A stretch of 64,000 nucleotides of DNA from Octopus vulgaris (Eukaryota), in the NCBI GenBank assembly GCA_951406725.2, contig OX597831.1:9114001-9178000 (forward strand), written 5' to 3'. Below are positions 4,466 through 52,866 of the stretch, piece after piece; the stretch's first letter is position 1; the number at the start of each line of letters is the position of its first letter. Both the position numbers and the translations under genes were made by a program. The notes under the pieces are model-generated. The model made no database searches and had not been told where the DNA came from. It saw only the letters and a list, made by a program, of their open reading frames with translations.

Positions 4466-5152
4466 TTAATTGTTTGTCGTAGACCCGTTAAGAAGTGGCT
4501 TGTATTTTGTAATAAAGAGATTTTCTTTACTTATTCGTTGTCTCGTGGTTGTATCGTCCCTAAATTGGTAGAGGGGGAAAATCCTGAAATTTGGTGTTTT
4601 TTTGTTGGCGCAAGTATCTATGTGTTGGCTAAAAGCTATTTTTCTGTTTTGGGGAATTTTTATCTGGGATCTGTGCAGGGCCATTCGTTTACGCAAACCA
4701 TTTTTTGTTTGGCCTATGTACTGCTCTTGACACCTGGAGCAGGTTAGTGAGTATATTAGGTTCTCCGAAGCACATGTGAAGTTGCTTTTCACTGTAAACC
4801 GTTGTCTCTGTTTGAAGGAGAACTCTGATCCCTCAATTAGATAGTCGCATATCCCGCAATTGGGTCTTCCACATTTTTTTACTGTCGGCTTCTGTGTTGA
4901 AGAGTGAATTCGGGCTTGTGTTAGGAGACTTTTCATGGATCTAGGCTGTCTTTTGCTTTTTATGATCGTGTGTGTTTGGAGGATTGTGTTCATTCTGTGG
5001 TCTTTTTTTAGGAGGGGTATGTTGTGGAGGATGGTGCCGAAGGCTTCGTTATTGAGAGGGTTGTGTGTGGAGATGTATGGTAAGGCTTTTGGTTGTAAGT
5101 TTTTCTTTGATTTGGGATGTCTCAGTTCCTTGATGTTAAGTTGAAGGGCACG
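4466..5152 (-). CDS. PLE thumb/linker plus GIY-YIG endonuclease (partial ORF)
   Basis: Frame is open upstream of the track ATG: ALPYISTHNP..CGRPNCGIC..FTCASENLIYSLTCSRCQEQYIGQT..LRKRMALH..QH..KENLFITKYKPLLN. Confidence 0.9.
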   Translation of the reverse strand, partial: RALQLNIKELRHPKSKKNLQPKALPYISTHNPLNNEAFGTILHNIPLLKKDHRMNTILQTHTIIKSKRQPRSMKSLLTQARIHSSTQKPTVKKCGRPNCGICDYLIEGSEFSFKQRQRFTVKSNFTCASENLIYSLTCSRCQEQYIGQTKNGLRKRMALHRSQIKIPQNRKIAFSQHIDTCANKKTPNFRIFPLYQFRDDTTTRQRISKENLFITKYKPLLNGSTTNN

Positions 5153-7958: not shown

Positions 7959-8703
7959 GAAAAAAGAGAAAATAGATAGAAGAAGAATGAGAAAAAAATT
8001 TTGTAGATTATGTATCTAAGTGTGTGTGTCTTTGTGACTGTGTTTGTATCCCGCTATAGCTTCACAACTACTGCGGATGTGTTTGCGTCCACGTAACATC
8101 ACGGTTCGGCAAAAGATTACGATAGATTAAGAGGCTGGATTAAAAATACTGGCCTCCATTAGTTTCCACTAAAATTCTTCGAGGCGATACTCCAGCATGA
8201 TCACATCCTAGGAACTACGTTAAGGGGTCGCATGTCTGAGCAGTACTCAGCCACTTTTCTTTTATCCTTTTACTCTTTTACTTGTTTTAGTCACTTGATA
8301 CGGCCATGCTGGAGCGCTGCCTTTAGTCGAGCAACTCGATCCCAGTACTATTCTTTGTAAGCCTAGTACTTGTTCTATCGGTCACTTCTGCCGAACCGCT
8401 AAGTTACGGGAACAAACAACATCGGTTGTCAAGCGATGGTGGGGGACAAATAGACACACACACGCATATGTGTGTGTGTGTATCTGAGCATACATATATA
8501 AAGCCGTTAAGTGGATACGTAAGTCGACTCTAGAAAGACAAATTCAGTCCCAGATATCCTAAGTATATATATTTGAATATATCAACAATAAAGGAACGGC
8601 CATAATAGGCCATTCACCCACTAGAAATAACAGCCAAAGCTTCAACCGCAAATAAAAGTTAATTCAGTAAACCAGGAGAAAATTTAAAAACATTTACCCT
8701 GTA

Positions 8704-8810
8704 ATTTCTTATACGGTATACCGTTTCATCTGCTGATTAATGGTAAACTAACCTGATTAAATTAAATCAAGCCAATCTTCCACAGGCTCTCAGATTCATC
8801 AGTAAGAAAT
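8704..8810 (-). ncRNA. Type I hammerhead ribozyme, monomer 1 (canonical core)
   Basis: Minus: ATTTCTTA-CTGATGA-ATCTG(58 nt)CAGAT-GAAACGG TATA CCGTA-TAAGAAAT; 8-bp stem I; GUA cleavage between 8712 and 8711. Confidence 0.92.
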
Positions 8811-9194
8811 AGCCCAAGACGGAACAGATATTTTCACGAGGCATTTCCGACGTTGCCAAGTTAATATCTGACCTAAAATTTTCAAATCGTCGCACTCGCG
8901 CCAAATTTATCGGCAGCAAATAAATATAAGCCGTCGATTCCATTACGGAATTAACCAGAAAATTCATAATTAATCAATATAGGGTGGCAAAAAAATTTTG
9001 TAGAATTCTTTTGCCACCAGCGGCCTAGTAGGAAAAAATTAAAATAGTCATAGACCATTTTTAAGTTCAACATCAACAATAAAGGAACGGCCATAATAGG
9101 CCATTCACCCACTAGAAATAACAGCCAAAGCTTCAACCGCAAATAAGAGTTAATTCAGTAAACCAGGAGAAAATTTAAAAACATTTACCCTGTA

Positions 9195-9301
9195 ATTTCT
9201 TATACGATATACCGTTTCATCTGCTGATTAATGGTAAACTAACCTGATTAAATTAAATCAAGCCAATCTTCCACAGGCTCTCAGATTCACCAGTAAGAAA
9301 T
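9195..9301 (-). ncRNA. Type I hammerhead, monomer 2 (core mutated to CUGGUGA)
   Basis: Same fold; T>C at 9290 gives A6G; stem III ACGGTATATCGT. Confidence 0.8.
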
Positions 9302-9686
9302 AGCCCAAGACGGAACAGATATTTTCACGAGGCATTTCCGACGTTGCCAAGTTAATATCTGACCTAAAATTTTCAAATCGTCGCACTCGCGCCAAATTTA
9401 TCGGCAGCAAATAAATATAAGCCGTCGATTCCATTACGGAATTAACCAGAAAATTCATAATTAATCAATATAGGGTGGCAAAAAAAATTTTGTAGAATTC
9501 TTTTGCCACCAGCGGCCTAGTAGGAAAAAATTAAAATAGTCATAGACCATTTTTAAGTTCAACATCAGCAATAAAGGAACGGCCATAATAGGCCATTCAC
9601 CCACTAGAAATAACAGCCAAAGCTTCAACCGCAAATAAAAGTTAATTCAGTAAACCAGGAGAAAATTTAAAAACATTTACCCTGTA

Positions 9687-9793
9687 ATTTCTTATACGAT
9701 ATACCGTTTCATCTGCTGATTAATGGTAAACTAACCTGATTAAATTAAATCAAGCCAATCTTCCACAGGCTCTCAGATTCATCAGTAAGAAAT
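9687..9793 (-). ncRNA. Type I hammerhead, monomer 3 (canonical core)
   Basis: Same fold; CTGATGA and GAAA intact; stem III carries a G-U pair. Confidence 0.9.
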
Positions 9794-10211
9794 AGCCCAA
9801 GACGGAACAGATATTTTCACGAGGCATTTCCGACGTTGCCAAGTTAATATCTGACCTAAAATTTTCAAATCGTCGCACTCGCGCCAAATTTATCGGCAGC
9901 AAATAAATATAAGCCGTCGATTCCATTACGGAATGTTTTTAAATGTTTTTAAATTTTCTCCTGGTTTACTGAATTAACTTTTATTTGCGGTTGAAGCTTT
10001 GGCTGTTATTTCTAGTGGGTGAATGGCCTATTATGGCCGTTCCTTTATTGTTGATGTTGAACTTAAAAATGGTCTATGACTATTTTAATTTTTCCTACTA
10101 GGCCGCTGGTGGCAAAAGAATTCTACAAAATTTTTTTTGCCACCCTATATTGATTAAATATATTTGAATATACACATACATATATAAATGCGCGCGCGCA
10201 CACACACACAC

Positions 10212-10561: not shown

Positions 10562-10844
10562 ATAATAACAATAATCCTTGGATGGAATTTACAACGAAGA
10601 ACATAGTCTGTATTCCTGGGATGATTACAGTGTAGTCCGTAGTATCCATGGGCATTGAGTGAACAGTCTCAAGCGTAACCGCCCGCAACTGTAAGGACAT
10701 CTCGTAACTTGACTGACGAAAGAAGGCCACGAATGACACGTCCTTTTTTTTCCTGTCCCACTAATTGTTGTTTTTCCTGTCCGCATTTATATCTATCTGT
10801 CTATCTGTCCGGATATTTTATTGTCCTCTTTTGCGTTTTTGTTC

Positions 10845-10902
<58 letters not shown>

Positions 10903-10908
<6 letters not shown>

Positions 10909-12558
10909 TTCCTAAAACGATCTTGTGCTGGTCCATTTGTATTAGCTGTTAAGGCGAGGGCATCATCTTTGTAGATGGCGAAATGTACGTTAGGGAATGT
11001 CTTACCGAAGGTATCTAGGAGAAAGAGTCCAATTAGATCACAGATGCCTGCCCCATCATATGAACCCATGCTCACATCGAAAGCGCCCTCCGTGTCGGTG
11101 TTTTTTACCCACTTTGCATTCTCACTGAAAAGTAATGTCTTTCTAGCATGGAAGATTATATCCTTATCATTGGTACTAATTTCTATGAAGTCACTAGCGA
11201 AGATTAGGGCTTTATCTAGCAGTTCTTTAGAGATAGAGGCATAAAAATCAACAATATCGAATTTACATAATATTGAGGTCTCTTTCTTTCTTTTGTTATC
11301 TTACCGTTTTATCAATAAATCACCTCCCGGACGACGTTATCCTCAACTAAGAGCTAATACGACCTTTTTGGGATTATCGCCTAACATCGGTTGAGGACTC
11401 TCACAAACAAAAGAATCTAATATGGACGCATATCACATAGATTATTCTATGAAAAATATACCGATCCCATCAAAGGATTTTTACTCTAAGAAACTTCTGC
11501 AAGAAATTACTGATGTAATTAAGCGTATGAGATGGAAGGCTTTCTTTTTTGACACAGAAGCGAACACCAAGGAAAACATTTTCTATCGGATAAAATCCAA
11601 AAATTCCCTCCTAGGATTAAAGGCTTGGAAGATTTCGAAGCGGACCTGCTGAAGATCATGAGCAAAATAAAGTTTCGTAAGTCTTTTAACAATTTCCAAC
11701 ATAAATTGAAAAAAGATATTGATCATATAAAATGCTCCAAGAAAAAAGCACTTTTTTCGGATAAAACCAAGAACTTATACCTGGTAGATAAGAGCAAATA
11801 CACACAACCCTTACACAACAGCATTACTAATAATTATACTAAGGCTAGGGCACAGACATATAACGAAATTAATAAAGAAGTTAGCGTCATCGCCGCTAAA
11901 CTTAAATTAGATAAAAAAATAGAAACCCTCCCCCAAAAAGAGGCCTTTATTACTATTAAAGATCAAAAAGAAAACTTCCTTTCCAACCCTAAATGTAGGC
12001 TTATCAACCCAGCCAAGTCAGAACTAGGGATTATTAGCAAAGAAATTTTAGATAAAATAAATACGAAAATTAAGACCGATACTAGGCTAGTGCAATGGTC
12101 CAATAGTATAGAAGTCGTAGAGTGGTTTAAAGCTATTAAGAATAAGAAAAAAGCGAGGTTTACACAATTCGATATTGTTGATTTTTATGCCTCTATCTCT
12201 AAAGAACTGCTAGATAAAGCCCTAATCTTCGCTAGTGACTTCATAGAAATTAGTACCAATGATAAGGATATAATCTTCCATGCTAGAAAGACATTACTTT
12301 TCAGTGAGAATGCAAAGTGGGTAAAAAACACCGACACGGAGGGCGCTTTCGATGTGAGCATGGGTTCATATGATGGGGCAGGCATCTGTGATCTAATTGG
12401 ACTCTTTCTCCTAGATACCTTCGGTAAGACATTCCCTAACGTACATTTCGCCATCTACAAAGATGATGCCCTCGCCTTAACAGCTAATACAAATGGACCA
12501 GCACAAGATCGTTTTAGGAAGGATATTATCCAGTTAATGAAACACTTCGGACTTAGTA

Positions 12559-12562
<4 letters not shown>
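10903..12562 (+). mobile_element. Penelope-like element, 3'-truncated, with inverted terminal duplication, in (TA)n
   Basis: 10903-11263 is the reverse complement of 12166-12526; 36-nt tail 12527-12562; (TA)n on both sides. Confidence 0.9.
11422..12562 (+). pseudogene. PLE reverse transcriptase (N-terminus to YKDD), one frameshift near 11610
   Basis: YSMKNIPIPS..KRMRWKAFFF / SDKTKNLY..AFITIKDQKENF..PKCRLINPAKSELG..QFDIVDFYASI..FDVSMGSYDGAGICDLIG..YKDD; Naiad-like by motif. Confidence 0.9.
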
Positions 12563-12602
<40 letters not shown>

Positions 12603-12610
12603 GCACAAAT

Positions 12611-12836
12611 ACTTATTTCTTTATTGCCCACAAGGGGCTAAAGATAGAGGGAATAAACAAGGACAGACCAACTGATTAAGTCGATTACATCGACCCCAGT
12701 GCGTAACTGGTACTTAATTTATCGACCCCGAAAGGATGAAAGGCAAAGTCGACCGCGGCGGAATTTGAACTCAGAACGTAGCGGCAGACGAAATACTGCT
12801 AAGCATTTCGCCCGGCGTGCTAACGTTTCCGCCAGA
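12611..12836 (-). mobile_element. SINE family A
   Basis: Reverse complement of the family A body. Confidence 0.85.
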
Positions 12837-15618: not shown

Positions 15619-16197
15619 CGAGTCAAGTGCTTGTGATGGTGTGCGCGAGTCAAGTGCTTGTGATGGTGTGCGCGAGTCAAGTGCTTGTGATGGTGTGCGC
15701 GAGTCAAGTGCTTGTGATGGCGTGCGCGAGTCAAGTGCTTGTGATGGTGTGCGCGAGTCAAGTGCTTGTGATGGTGTGCGCGAGTCAAGTGCTTGTGATG
15801 GTGTGCGCGAGTCAAGTGCTTGTGATGGCGTGCGCGAGTCAAGTGCTTGTGATGGTGTGCGCGAGTCAAGTGCTTGTGATGGTGTGCGCGAGTCAAGTGC
15901 TTGTGATGGTGTGCGCGAGTCAAGTGCTTGTGATGGCGTGCGCGAGTCAAGTGCTTGTGATGGTGTGCGCGAGTCAAGTGCTTGTGATGGTGTGCGCGAG
16001 TCAAGTGCTTGTGATGGTGTGCGCGAGTCAAGTACTTGTGATGGTGTGCGCGAGTCAAGTGCTTGTGATGGTGTGCGCGAGTCAAGTGCTTGTGATGGTG
16101 TGCGCGAGTCAAGTGCTTGTGATGGTGTGCGCGAGTCAAGTGCTTGTGATGGTGTGCGCGAGTCAAGTGCTTGTGATGGCGTGCGCGAGTCAAGTGC
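15619..16197. repeat. 27-bp minisatellite, ~21 near-perfect copies
   Basis: Unit GAGTCAAGTGCTTGTGATGG(T/C)GTGCGC, head-to-tail with no spacers. Confidence 0.97.
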
Positions 16198-17026: not shown

Positions 17027-18736
17027 CCTACGCCAGTATATCCCCCATCTTACTTAACAAATCCCTTATATTTGCCCGCAACCTTTCACTCATAGACAGA
17101 GAAAAAATTGACATAATACTATTAGCTAGAAAAACCATAATAGAATTCGACGGTAGACTCTGGACCAGATCCGATACCCCCGACAATTTTGATGTGGCTA
17201 TGGGCTCGAGCGATTCAGCTCAGGTGACTGACTTGGTCGGGGCCTACCTGCTCAAGAAGCTTTTCTCCGAGGTATCGGATCTTCAGGGGGGTCTATACAG
17301 AGACGACGCTCTCTTCATATACCCCACCAACAATAGGAGTAAACTAGAAAGAATTAGGAAAAAGATCAGGCTTTTTTTCAAATCCTTCAATCTTAAACTA
17401 GAATTTATGACCAATACTAAAATAGTAAACTTCTTAGATGTTACGTTAGACTTGAATAAGCACCTTCACCACCCGTATAGGAAACCCGAAGAAACTACCA
17501 AATACATCCATACCTCTTCCAACCATCCACCCTGTATAATTAGCACCACGGTCCAAGCCATCTCAGACAGACTGACAAAACTATCCTCTAATAGAGAAAT
17601 TTTCAATAATCACGCACAACACTACAACCAGGCTCTCTATAGTGCCGGGTATAACCAGAGAATATCATATGTAGACCACCCGGGAGCGTCCGTCTGCCAT
17701 AAAACTCCCAATTATAATCGAACTCAGCACTCAACTCACACTAGCGATAATTCTAATTTAAACTCCAAACAACGTATAGGAAATAGACGAACTAATAGAA
17801 TAGCACACAATAGTAACCCTCCCGACGAGAGCAATATAGATCCTATTAGGAGAAATAGAAGGGATAATAGATTACGCAAATATATATGGTTCAACTTACC
17901 TTACAACTTAGCAGTTAGGGGTAAGTTATGTAAGAGAATATTCTCTATCATTTCCAACAACTTCCCACCCACCCACAAGTATAGAAGCATCTTCTCCAAC
18001 AAAACCATTAGGATTTCCTACTCTACCCTGCCCAACATGAGCTGCCTCATAGCTAAACATAACTATATTAATATTAGAACAGCTAGATCAAGAGCAAACC
18101 ATAGCGACCAACAGAACCCCCCTCATCTAGACAGTAGACAATATAACCAGACTGGCAGCCATACTACCCAAACAGTTAGTAATAACACCCGCCAACACAA
18201 CAGAGGAAATACTACACCCATCAACAACCAGGAGGATATCAACGCCCCCACTCGTATTGCAACACCTCCGCCTGGGATTAGCAGCACACGACCGAATAAT
18301 GCAATGCAATGCAACTGCAGATGTGCATCAGAGTGCCCGCTGCAGGGCGCATGTAGGGCGAAAAACGTAATATATTCATGTGAGGTGAGTACTCAGTTTA
18401 ACACACTCACCTATATTGGTTGTCTCAACCTCCTGGAAATCCAGATACTACAACCACCGGTCCTCGCTGAGACACAGACATAAGGCTAACAGCACCTCCC
18501 TTTCTAAAAGAATTTGGGAATTAAAAGACAAATGTATAGGCTTCAAACTCAGATGGTCCATCATCGGATCAGCTGCACCTTATTTAAATAATAGAGCAGG
18601 ATGCCAACTATGTTGTGTAGAACTCCTGAACATCTTGAAATTCAAAGACAAACACAATCTTATTAACAAAAGGTCAGAGTTCAAACCATCCTGTATACAC
18701 AAACTTATTAATACTTTCAAATACTACAAAGCTTAG
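17027..18736 (+). pseudogene. PLE RT plus GIY-YIG endonuclease, single frameshift near 18425
   Basis: FDVAMGSSDSAQVTDLVG..YRDD..VNFLDVTLDL..PYRKP..YIHTSSNHPP..IWFNLPY..CNCR..CPLQGAC..VIYSC..YIG / SRYYNH..CQLCCVE..LINKRSE..CIH. Confidence 0.93.
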
Positions 18737-27469: not shown

Positions 27470-28050
27470 TCTACTTTTCTACTCTTGGCTCAAGGCCCGA
27501 AATTTTGCGGGAGGGGACCAGACGATTATATCGACCCCAGTACTCAACTGGCACTTAATTTATCGACCCCAAAGGGATGAAAGACAAAGTCGACCTCGGC
27601 GGAATTTGAACTGAGAACGCAACGGCAGACGAAATACCTATTTCTTTACTACCCACAAGGAGCCAAACACAGAGAGGACAAACAAGGACAGACCGAGGGA
27701 TTAAGTCGATTATATCTACCCTAGTACTGGTACTTAATTTATCGACCCCAAAGGGATGAAAGGCTAAGTCGACCCCCGCGGGATTTGAACTCACAACGTA
27801 ACGGCAGATGAAATACCTATTTCTTTACTACTCACAAGGGGCTAAACACAGAGAGGACAAACAAGGACAGACAGACGGATTAAGTCGATTACATCGACCC
27901 CAGTGCATAACTGGGACTTAATTTATCGATCCCGAAAGGATGAAAGGCAAAGTCGACCTCGGCGGAATTTGAACTCAGAGCGTAGCGGCAGACAAAATAC
28001 CGCTAAGCTTTTTGCCCGGCGTGCAAACGTTTCTGCCAGCTCGCCGCCTT
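27470..28050 (-). mobile_element. SINE family A trimer
   Basis: One head at ~28050 followed by three body repeats of ~185 bp. Confidence 0.85.
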
Positions 28051-47054: not shown

Positions 47055-47703
47055 TTTCTACTGGAGGAACAAGGCCTGAAATGTGTGGGGAGGGGACTGG
47101 CTGATCATATGGGACCCAGTGTTTCACTGGTGCTTAATTTATCGACCCCGAAAGGATGAAAAGCGAAGTCGAACTCGGCGGAATTTGAACCCCGGAACTT
47201 AGCGGATTTCGAAATACTGCTAAGCATTTCGCCCGGCGTGCTAACGATTCTTATTTCTTTATTAACCCACAAGGGGCTAAACACAGAGGGGACAAACAAG
47301 GACAGACAAAAATATTAAGTTGATTATATCGGCCCCAGCATGTAACTGGTACTTATTTAATAGACCCCGAAAGGATGAGAGGCAAAATCGACCTCGGCGG
47401 AATTTGAACCCCAGAACTTAGCGGATTTCGAAATACTGCTAAGCATTTCGCCCGGCGTGCTACCGATTCTTATTTCTTTACTACCCACAAGGGGTTAAAC
47501 ACAGAGGGGACAAACAAGGACACACAAACGGATTAAGTCGATTACATCGACTCCAGTGCGTAACTGGTACTTATTTAATCGACCCCGAAAAGATGATAGG
47601 CAAAATCGACCTCGCCGGAATTTGAACCCCAGAACTTAGCGACTTTCGAAATACTGCTAAGCATTTCGCCCGGTGTGCTAACGATTCTGACAACTCGACG
47701 CTT
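47055..47703 (-). mobile_element. SINE family A trimer
   Basis: Three head-to-tail units of ~240 bp (AATACTGCTAAGCATTTCGCCCGG at ~47213, 47433 and 47650, allowing indels), sharing the private variant GAACCCC(A/G)GAACTTAGCG. Confidence 0.85.
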
Positions 47704-52788: not shown

Positions 52789-52866
52789 CATCTCTGACGA
52801 GTTGGCAGCTTGTCTTGCATTATGCAGACAACAATCGCTTTGTGTTAATGAAACGTACGTAGGATG
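52789..52866 (+). ncRNA. Type I hammerhead ribozyme (canonical core), no adjacent ORF
   Basis: CATCT-CTGACGA-GTTGGCA(inner hairpin TTGTCTTGCA/TGCAGACAA)TGTTAAT-GAAAC GTAC GTA-GGATG; cleavage after 52861. Confidence 0.82.

Follow-up and report, generated by a model that had tools for sequence, protein, structure and literature searches.

A dispersed family of two-armed hammerhead repeats in Octopus vulgaris with a Penelope-like insertion footprint

Positions 8567–10172 of the 64,000-nucleotide stretch of Octopus vulgaris DNA that we analysed (the window) are a real, young insertion of a dispersed, non-coding family of tandem hammerhead repeats, i.e. a non-LTR retrozyme. The element is very probably non-autonomous and mobilised by Penelope-like elements (PLEs). 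A more specific reading, which we consider likely, is that its head-to-head arms with fixed outer ends were written by a PLE protein that primed from both nicked strands, and that the templates included circles. The features of the insertion are collected in Table 1.

Table 1. Positions of the features of the insertion within the window
Feature	Position	Strand	Remarks
Target-site duplication, left copy	8567–8581		15 bp, imperfect TA-rich target; last 1–2 bases overlap the element end
Long arm, tandem array	8581–9934	−	RNA sense on the minus strand
Hammerhead 1	8704–8810	−	CUGAUGA core, perfect palindromic stem III, predicted cut 8712/8711
Cut-to-cut monomer	8712–9202	−	491 nt
Hammerhead 2	9195–9301	−	CUGGUGA core, predicted cut 9203/9202
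Cut-to-cut monomer	9203–9694	−	492 nt
Strong hairpin	9474–9510	−	directly upstream of the putative phase-238 start site; kept in the sister family
Small hairpin	9577–9598	−	directly upstream of the putative phase-131 start site; second copy at 8594–8615
Hammerhead 3	9687–9793	−	CUGAUGA core, G·U pair in stem III, predicted cut 9695/9694
Inner head-to-head junction	9935–9939		5 filler bases that duplicate a short piece of the start of the neighbouring arm
Inverted short arm	9940–10157	+	5′ end 15 nt past the predicted cut site
Target-site duplication, right copy	10158–10172		15 bp

A repeat search of the window returned the long arm as a tandem array with a period of 492, 2.8 copies and 99% matches, in agreement with the original prediction of about 2.75 near-identical 491/492-nt units; the two cut-to-cut units have 3–4 differing sites. 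The predicted lack of a convincing open reading frame was also borne out (the longest ATG ORF in the element has 66 aa), and the array lies, as predicted, inside a 15-bp direct repeat, ATATATTTGAATATA. The array had been taken for the whole content of 8567–10172, however, and the inverted short arm had been overlooked. This arm is a partial monomer copy comprising phases 16 to ∼234–238, in which phases are counted from the first base 3′ of the cut (phase p = 9695 − p; reference unit 9203–9694). Its 'tail' corresponds to phases 132–238 (∼105 nt). The long arm has its outer (3′) end at phase 131 and its inner (5′) end at phase 253 and crosses three cut-site junctions. Both arms consist of simple tandem units, and an LTR structure is absent. 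The GC content of the element is 0.35–0.39, and the fold energy of the monomer is well below that of shuffled sequences (z −6.07; 0/100 shuffles as good). The strong hairpin is repeated at 8982–9018 and 10108–10144. The small hairpin carries a compensatory change in the sister family described below, from GGCC/GGCC to GACC/GGUC. No tRNA gene was detected in the 64-kb window, and phage records contained no match to the element. Parts of the array are covered by contigs from four sequencing runs, whose RNA nature is a guess on our part.

A pattern scan of both strands of the window identified three minus-strand type I hammerheads, one per unit as claimed originally. Each contains GAAAC and GUA and has an 8-bp stem I (AUUUCUUA/UAAGAAAU), a stem II of 68 nt and a stem III that is short. 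The CUGAUGA core that had been ascribed to every unit is present in units 1 and 3, but the middle core (9293–9287) reads CUGGUGA, with the conserved A6 changed, a single case among the scored copies. Judging from the otherwise conserved core, hammerhead 2 is probably impaired. Similarly, the palindromic stem III described for all units is perfect solely in the unit at 8712, whereas a G·U pair occurs in the other two units and in 329/330 scored segments; despite this pair, the monomer RNA is still predicted to self-dimerise. When hammerhead 1 is folded alone (107 nt), its minimum-energy structure is the hammerhead (−30.8 kcal/mol, z −4.3, 0/200 shuffles as good), and for hammerheads 2 and 3 alone there is a small predicted preference for a fold that pairs the core with stem III. 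Alternative pairing of stem III with the core start or stem I is seen at 9195–9301, at 9687–9793 and in the sister family at L073:1382–1478, and it is possible that such pairing forms a conserved off-state of the ribozyme in both sister families. In the whole monomer, also when circular, competing folds are predicted and the probability computed for stem I does not exceed 7%, so cleavage may be slow or need help.

The search with the Rfam model Hammerhead_1 that had been suggested as a check gave no match up to E 10; only Hammerhead_3 was found, below threshold (27.2 bits vs 48.5) and in two of the three units, probably because stem II is long. The type III fold drawn by Rfam was considered and rejected: its stem I is poorly paired and has no counterpart in the sister family, and its site shows no excess of arm ends (2% at phases 379–405). 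A plant-type LTR retrozyme, with a type III hammerhead in LTRs and a 4-bp target duplication, was likewise rejected, as these features do not describe the element.

The family was then characterized across the genome (2.8 Gb, 227 contigs). The monomer search gave at least 261 matches, from 39 scored of 1,002 candidates, and the 150 matches listed are 89–100% identical. Dispersed arrays had been anticipated, and family loci are indeed spread over many contigs. Exact matches numbered 180 for the phase-131|TA junction, 792 for the ribozyme core and 2,578 for the hairpin, compared with 0 in each control. The first 100 hairpin matches form 45 clusters, which extrapolates to ∼1,100–1,200 loci including older subfamilies. 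We mapped 163 loci, leaving out L046, which duplicates L045, and L327, where no match reached 85%. The majority of the family has the core CUGAAGA, all four bases occur at N7, and core positions are intact in all but 5 of 3,516 scored across loci. Locus-fixed alleles are found at 0/11 core sites vs 39/460 sites overall, a difference that is not significant.

A sister family with 2,109 candidates (L073:1473–1963; loci L069–L098) has a monomer of 490–492 nt; its alignment with the window monomer spans the full length, with ∼70% identity in the best-matching half. It retains CUGAUGA, GAAAC and GUA, and its stem I (ACUUUG/CAAAGU), stem II base (AACAA/UUGUU) and stem III differ in sequence with pairing kept. 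The positions of the outer ends and the two-arm anatomy are identical in the two families. On the strength of this covariation, which comes from two lineages and not from a deep alignment, the ribozyme looks functional. In the sister family, many arms also end at phases 1–29. Related repeats that are 72–78% identical to the monomer are present at L125 (oriented 96–1119) and L327:2339–2522 and are possibly further sister families.

Head-to-head arm pairs were found at 126 of the 163 loci, and tail-to-tail pairs at none. Among 58 loci that were not selected on the phase-131 end, 52 end at phase 131, 48 near phase 238 and 42 at both. The outer ends are thus fixed at phase 131 and ∼233–242, which gives a tail of ∼105 nt. 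(TA)n flanks the element on both sides in 96/118 loci, and target duplications of 13–15 bp were observed at the five loci with readable targets, the window copy included. At the inner junctions, the arms mostly overlap by 0–7 nt. Junctions between units are seamless in 361/367 cases, and arms pass up to 10 of them. According to the available text of two accounts, PLE insertions have an inverted 5′-truncated copy, a one-sided tail and a microsatellite target (PMC8557442, PMC3846280). The head-to-head arms, fixed ends and (TA)n target of the octopus family therefore constitute a Penelope-like footprint, and the original view of a non-coding, dispersed hammerhead element mobilised by PLEs gains support from the fixed ends, the tail, the TA targeting and the inverted arm. 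At the sequence level, the family has the attributes of a non-LTR retrozyme: type I hammerheads in two or more successive units, a GC content below 50%, dispersed loci and a target duplication longer than 4 bp, with neither coding capacity nor an LTR.

The inner ends of the arms provide information about the template. Among the 100 junction matches listed, 148 arms get as far as the first junction, and 41 of them end at phases 1–27, a zone picked after inspection of the first 60 loci; the background is 3.3% per equal stretch elsewhere. The two arms of a locus agree (14 stop/stop, 37 pass/pass, 4 mixed; Fisher p 3e-9). Both the excess and the agreement persist for zones of 15–35 nt and in sets of 25 and 21 later-fetched loci, in which first-junction stops number 7/33 and 12/22. 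The complete 100-locus junction set was used because the excess at later junctions in the best-match loci is inflated by selection for full-length matches. In this set, later junctions stop a smaller share of arms than the first does (15/112 vs 41/148, p 0.006), a difference that is absent in the 25 held-out loci (7/33 vs 4/11, p 0.42). Later junctions are nonetheless the strongest stop on the unit, at 13%, compared with at most 8% for the next stretch. The stops at the cut and the agreement between arms indicate an RNA with its 5′ end at the predicted cut, read in the sense orientation, with usually one molecule or class of molecule serving both arms. The piling up of arm ends 3′ of the predicted site suggests that the hammerhead cleaves in vivo. 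Alternative sources of the stops would be a transcription start at the cut position or a very strong pause.

We propose that the minus strand is transcribed and that the hammerhead then cuts the RNA after GUA, as the arm ends would indicate. Some of the monomers would close into circles, which is the least certain step. A PLE endonuclease would nick TA-rich DNA with a stagger of 13–15 nt, in keeping with the observed target and duplication. Reverse transcription would begin at two internal positions of the RNA, phase 131 for one DNA strand and ∼238 for the second, and at both a hairpin lies immediately 5′; these ends are observed, and priming at them is proposed from PMC11167929. On a cut linear monomer, both copies would run off at the cut, and on a circle or an uncut multimer the junction would be passed, up to 10 times. 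The inner ends would finally be joined by microhomology. A bolder version treats the genome as a fossil record of retrozyme replication, in which one RNA, either a cut monomer or a ligated circle, was copied by two PLE reverse transcriptases (RTs) from two nicks, so that the cut monomer would give rise to short palindromic insertions and rolling-circle copying to multi-unit arms. In our judgement, this version could equally well prove right or wrong.

Comparison of units within and between loci bears on the form of the template. Unit divergence is 0.33% within insertions vs 0.65% between them (38 loci), and 26 locus-fixed haplotypes were found among the 54 loci with at least two full units. 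There are 16 private fixed alleles, 11 of which occur in both arms. The uniform haplotypes and seamless junctions favour a circle, and a single monomer that was read repeatedly is also supported by the lower stop rate at later junctions in the 100-locus set and by minor alleles being confined to single units in 151 of 168 cases. Common alleles, on the other hand, are mixed in 13/174 locus cases, which counts against it. The same element and PLE priming could instead operate with no circle, on linear read-through multimers transcribed from multi-unit source loci and partly cut. The excess of stops at later junctions, where a closed circle predicts none, keeps such partly cut linear multimers alive as an explanation. 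In 17 later-junction stops the other arm ran no further, and in 10 cases it did, so that 17/27 junction-stop cases fit linear multimers, and at L039 both arms stop at the junction after two passes. The window copy, with phases 16–238 and 253 onward, could also have been copied from a single uninterrupted linear RNA of four units, fold prediction has the ribozyme mostly misfolded in its context, and uncut RNA was the main substrate of the anole PLE in vitro (PMC11167929). However, linear copying would never make daughters longer than their parents, yet arms of 6–10 passes occur, and the 26 homogeneous haplotypes would need repeated single-unit bottlenecks followed by re-expansion. In addition, none of 85 minor alleles is common to same-rank units of both arms, an observation with low power if most of the single-unit alleles are assembly errors or arose after insertion. 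We therefore consider a purely linear scheme unlikely. All the arm and allele data can be accommodated if cut monomers, circles and partly cleaved oligomers occur together, and both linear and circular RNA forms are reported for other retrozymes in the available text of PMC7229834. A very different proposal, that each insertion initially comprised roughly one unit and was extended into an array afterwards by unequal exchange in DNA, or that the arrays are artefacts of assembly, could draw on the terminal redundancy, which permits such exchange, and on the few alleles common to non-adjacent units of one arm (L155, L066, L189). It is nevertheless highly improbable, since minor alleles are overwhelmingly confined to single units (151 vs 17 in multiple units; n = 168) and the inner ends lie at scattered phases in a structured pattern; collapse or artefact is contradicted by the locus-specific haplotypes, intact target duplications and varied junctions.

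The remaining explanation derives the unit from an autonomous coding PLE, either as its terminal repeat (pLTR) or as a truncated end of it, and regards the arrays as debris. The ends, tail, target and inverted arm are all as in PLE insertions (available text of PMC8557442 and PMC3846280), and retrozymes of Xenopus match PLE pLTRs (10.64898/2026.07.22.740005). The original prediction had named an internal piece of a longer coding PLE as the finding that would overturn it. At the 163 loci, we found no PLE match and no ORF with RT and GIY-YIG domains continuous with an arm; 16 loci have a PLE protein match, 6 of them within 1 kb, and the nearest lies 238 nt outside an outer end. The arms run into further monomers and not into an ORF. 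The genome does contain young PLE families with intact ORFs, namely two Neptune-like (781 aa and 775 aa) and one Hydra-like (1,312 aa). All three insert in (TA)n, with 3′ ends ∼37 nt (Neptune-like, 781 aa), ∼46 nt (Neptune-like, 775 aa) and ∼56 nt (Hydra-like) apart. The Neptune- and Hydra-like labels are presumptive, assigned from motifs compared with the descriptions in PMC8557442 and from general knowledge, and not from a tree. None of the three families has nucleotide similarity to either monomer, the strong matches in this comparison being nested insertions of either monomer or of related repeats, and neither the three families nor ten Neptune-like 3′ regions from retrieved loci contain a homologous pLTR. 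Descent from a coding PLE in the form of recent debris thus has very little to recommend it, and an ancient origin of the unit from a pLTR is possible. Given that neither a partner of similar sequence nor a continuous PLE ORF was found in these families and loci, we infer the enzyme from the footprint.

In the available text of the accounts of metazoan non-LTR retrozymes (PMC7229834, 10.64898/2026.07.22.740005), these elements resemble the octopus family in being dispersed, non-coding tandem units, each with a type I hammerhead and a GC content of ∼35%, in having target duplications longer than 4 bp, in sharing their genomes with autonomous PLEs and in length, which ranges from 51 to 972 bp across 35 genomes, none of them molluscan (10.64898/2026.07.22.740005). 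The octopus monomer was originally described as longer than those of other animals. This holds relative to the 170–400-nt RNAs tested, according to the available text of PMC7229834, but not relative to the 51–972 bp range; its stem II measures 68 nt. The available text of these accounts, in which no cephalopod is named, describes neither paired head-to-head arms nor fixed internal ends, and neither insertion into (TA)n nor arms that stop at the cut (PMC7229834, 10.64898/2026.07.22.740005). Cleavage and circles are demonstrated there for metazoan retrozymes, whereas for the octopus element both are predictions. In Xenopus, 24 of 57 retrozyme families match known repeats, nearly all of them PLEs, so the relationship is not universal (10.64898/2026.07.22.740005); in contrast to the Xenopus retrozymes that match pLTRs, the octopus monomer has no homologous pLTR in the PLE families compared.

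The likeness to coding PLEs is in the insertion itself. Insertions of Neptune, Hydra, Naiad and Penelope/Poseidon, as described in the available text of PMC8557442 and PMC3846280, share head-to-head arms with an inverted 5′-truncated copy, a one-sided tail, a microsatellite target, a short target duplication and a hammerhead near the 3′ end. Their printed tails are 30–40 nt, compared with ∼105 nt in the octopus element, which also differs in having no ORF and in arms that are multimers of one small unit. In the available text of PMC3846280, head-to-head arms are explained by self-priming on an antisense template; the arm stops at the cut site favour a sense template instead. Poseidon of Anolis carolinensis nicks both DNA strands at AT-rich sites and extends them in vitro, and its tail equals the distance between two internal RT start sites downstream of the hammerhead (PMC11167929). 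It resembles the octopus element in the use of both strands and of two internal starts 3′ of the hammerhead and differs in being autonomous. Furthermore, its ribozyme is dispensable in vitro and no reads end at the cut (PMC11167929), whereas octopus genomic arms pile up at the predicted cut.

The class of element is thus already known, and its insertion footprint is the informative part. In the open literature, taken exclusive of Repbase/Dfam and supplements, we found no account of a cephalopod retrozyme or of a two-armed retrozyme insertion, and PMC8967140 mentions neither hammerhead nor retrozyme; a catalogue entry for the family, as a repeat without a name, may exist. In the available text, the re-entry of animal retrozymes into DNA is presented as proposed and not shown (PMC7229834, 10.64898/2026.07.22.740005), and what the hammerhead does for PLEs is described as unclear (PMC8557442). 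The octopus family bears on the origin of PLE head-to-head ends, by antisense self-priming or by double priming on sense RNA, and supplies coordinates for tests: two start sites, a target, a cut site, two product classes and about a thousand young loci. If the fossil-record reading is true, the family would provide direct genomic evidence that, in an animal, hammerheads cleave in vivo and retrotransposition proceeds by a rolling circle, and the inverted ends of PLEs would be explained by double priming on sense RNA.

Several further observations concern individual loci. At L032, L052, L181 and L189, single sites show a mosaic of alleles among the units of the two arms that does not follow rank (e.g. 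6/7 and 5/8 units) and that resembles the outcome of copying a single modified base of the template several times; such cases are few. A-to-I editing fixed into insertions was considered and is unsupported (A>G in 4/16 private fixed vs 12/151 single-unit alleles, p 0.05; strand asymmetry 4:2, p 0.22). The Neptune-like family at L293:2824–6419 is very young and forms tandems with a period of ∼4,271; its 775-aa RT-endonuclease ORF is preceded by a 454-aa open frame that overlaps it. The Hydra-like family at L239:3053–6988 (minus-strand coordinates), also very young, has a long asparagine-rich insert in its 1,312-aa ORF, and its terminal repeat contains a hammerhead-like core of variant sequence, CUGAUGC.

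The window also contains other repeats. A PLE fragment at 10818–12641, which we take to be Naiad-like from its motifs and which has no significant Pfam match, was rejected as part of the element because it lies outside the target duplication. Its RT region occupies 11553–12560 (+), and it is accompanied by an inverted truncated copy at ∼10905–11291 (−); both end in (TA)n inside the RT coding region, ∼36 nt apart. A more distant Naiad-like RT fragment, 39% identical to this one, is located at 17029–17400 (+). A Neptune-like endonuclease fragment at 4487–5152 (−) is 62% identical to the 781-aa family, and its 3′ region, which terminates in (TA)n, has a minimal hammerhead-like motif whose core is a variant. 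At 52794–52861 (+), a hammerhead-like motif unrelated to the monomer (CUGACGA...GAAAC GUAC GUA) has a palindromic stem III and weak stems I and II. Tandem repeats with periods of 179–218 and one 27-nt minisatellite of 21 copies are present at 1949–2286, 27523–28001, 47126–47688 and 15619–16197, and the consensus units of the period 179–218 repeats look mutually related.
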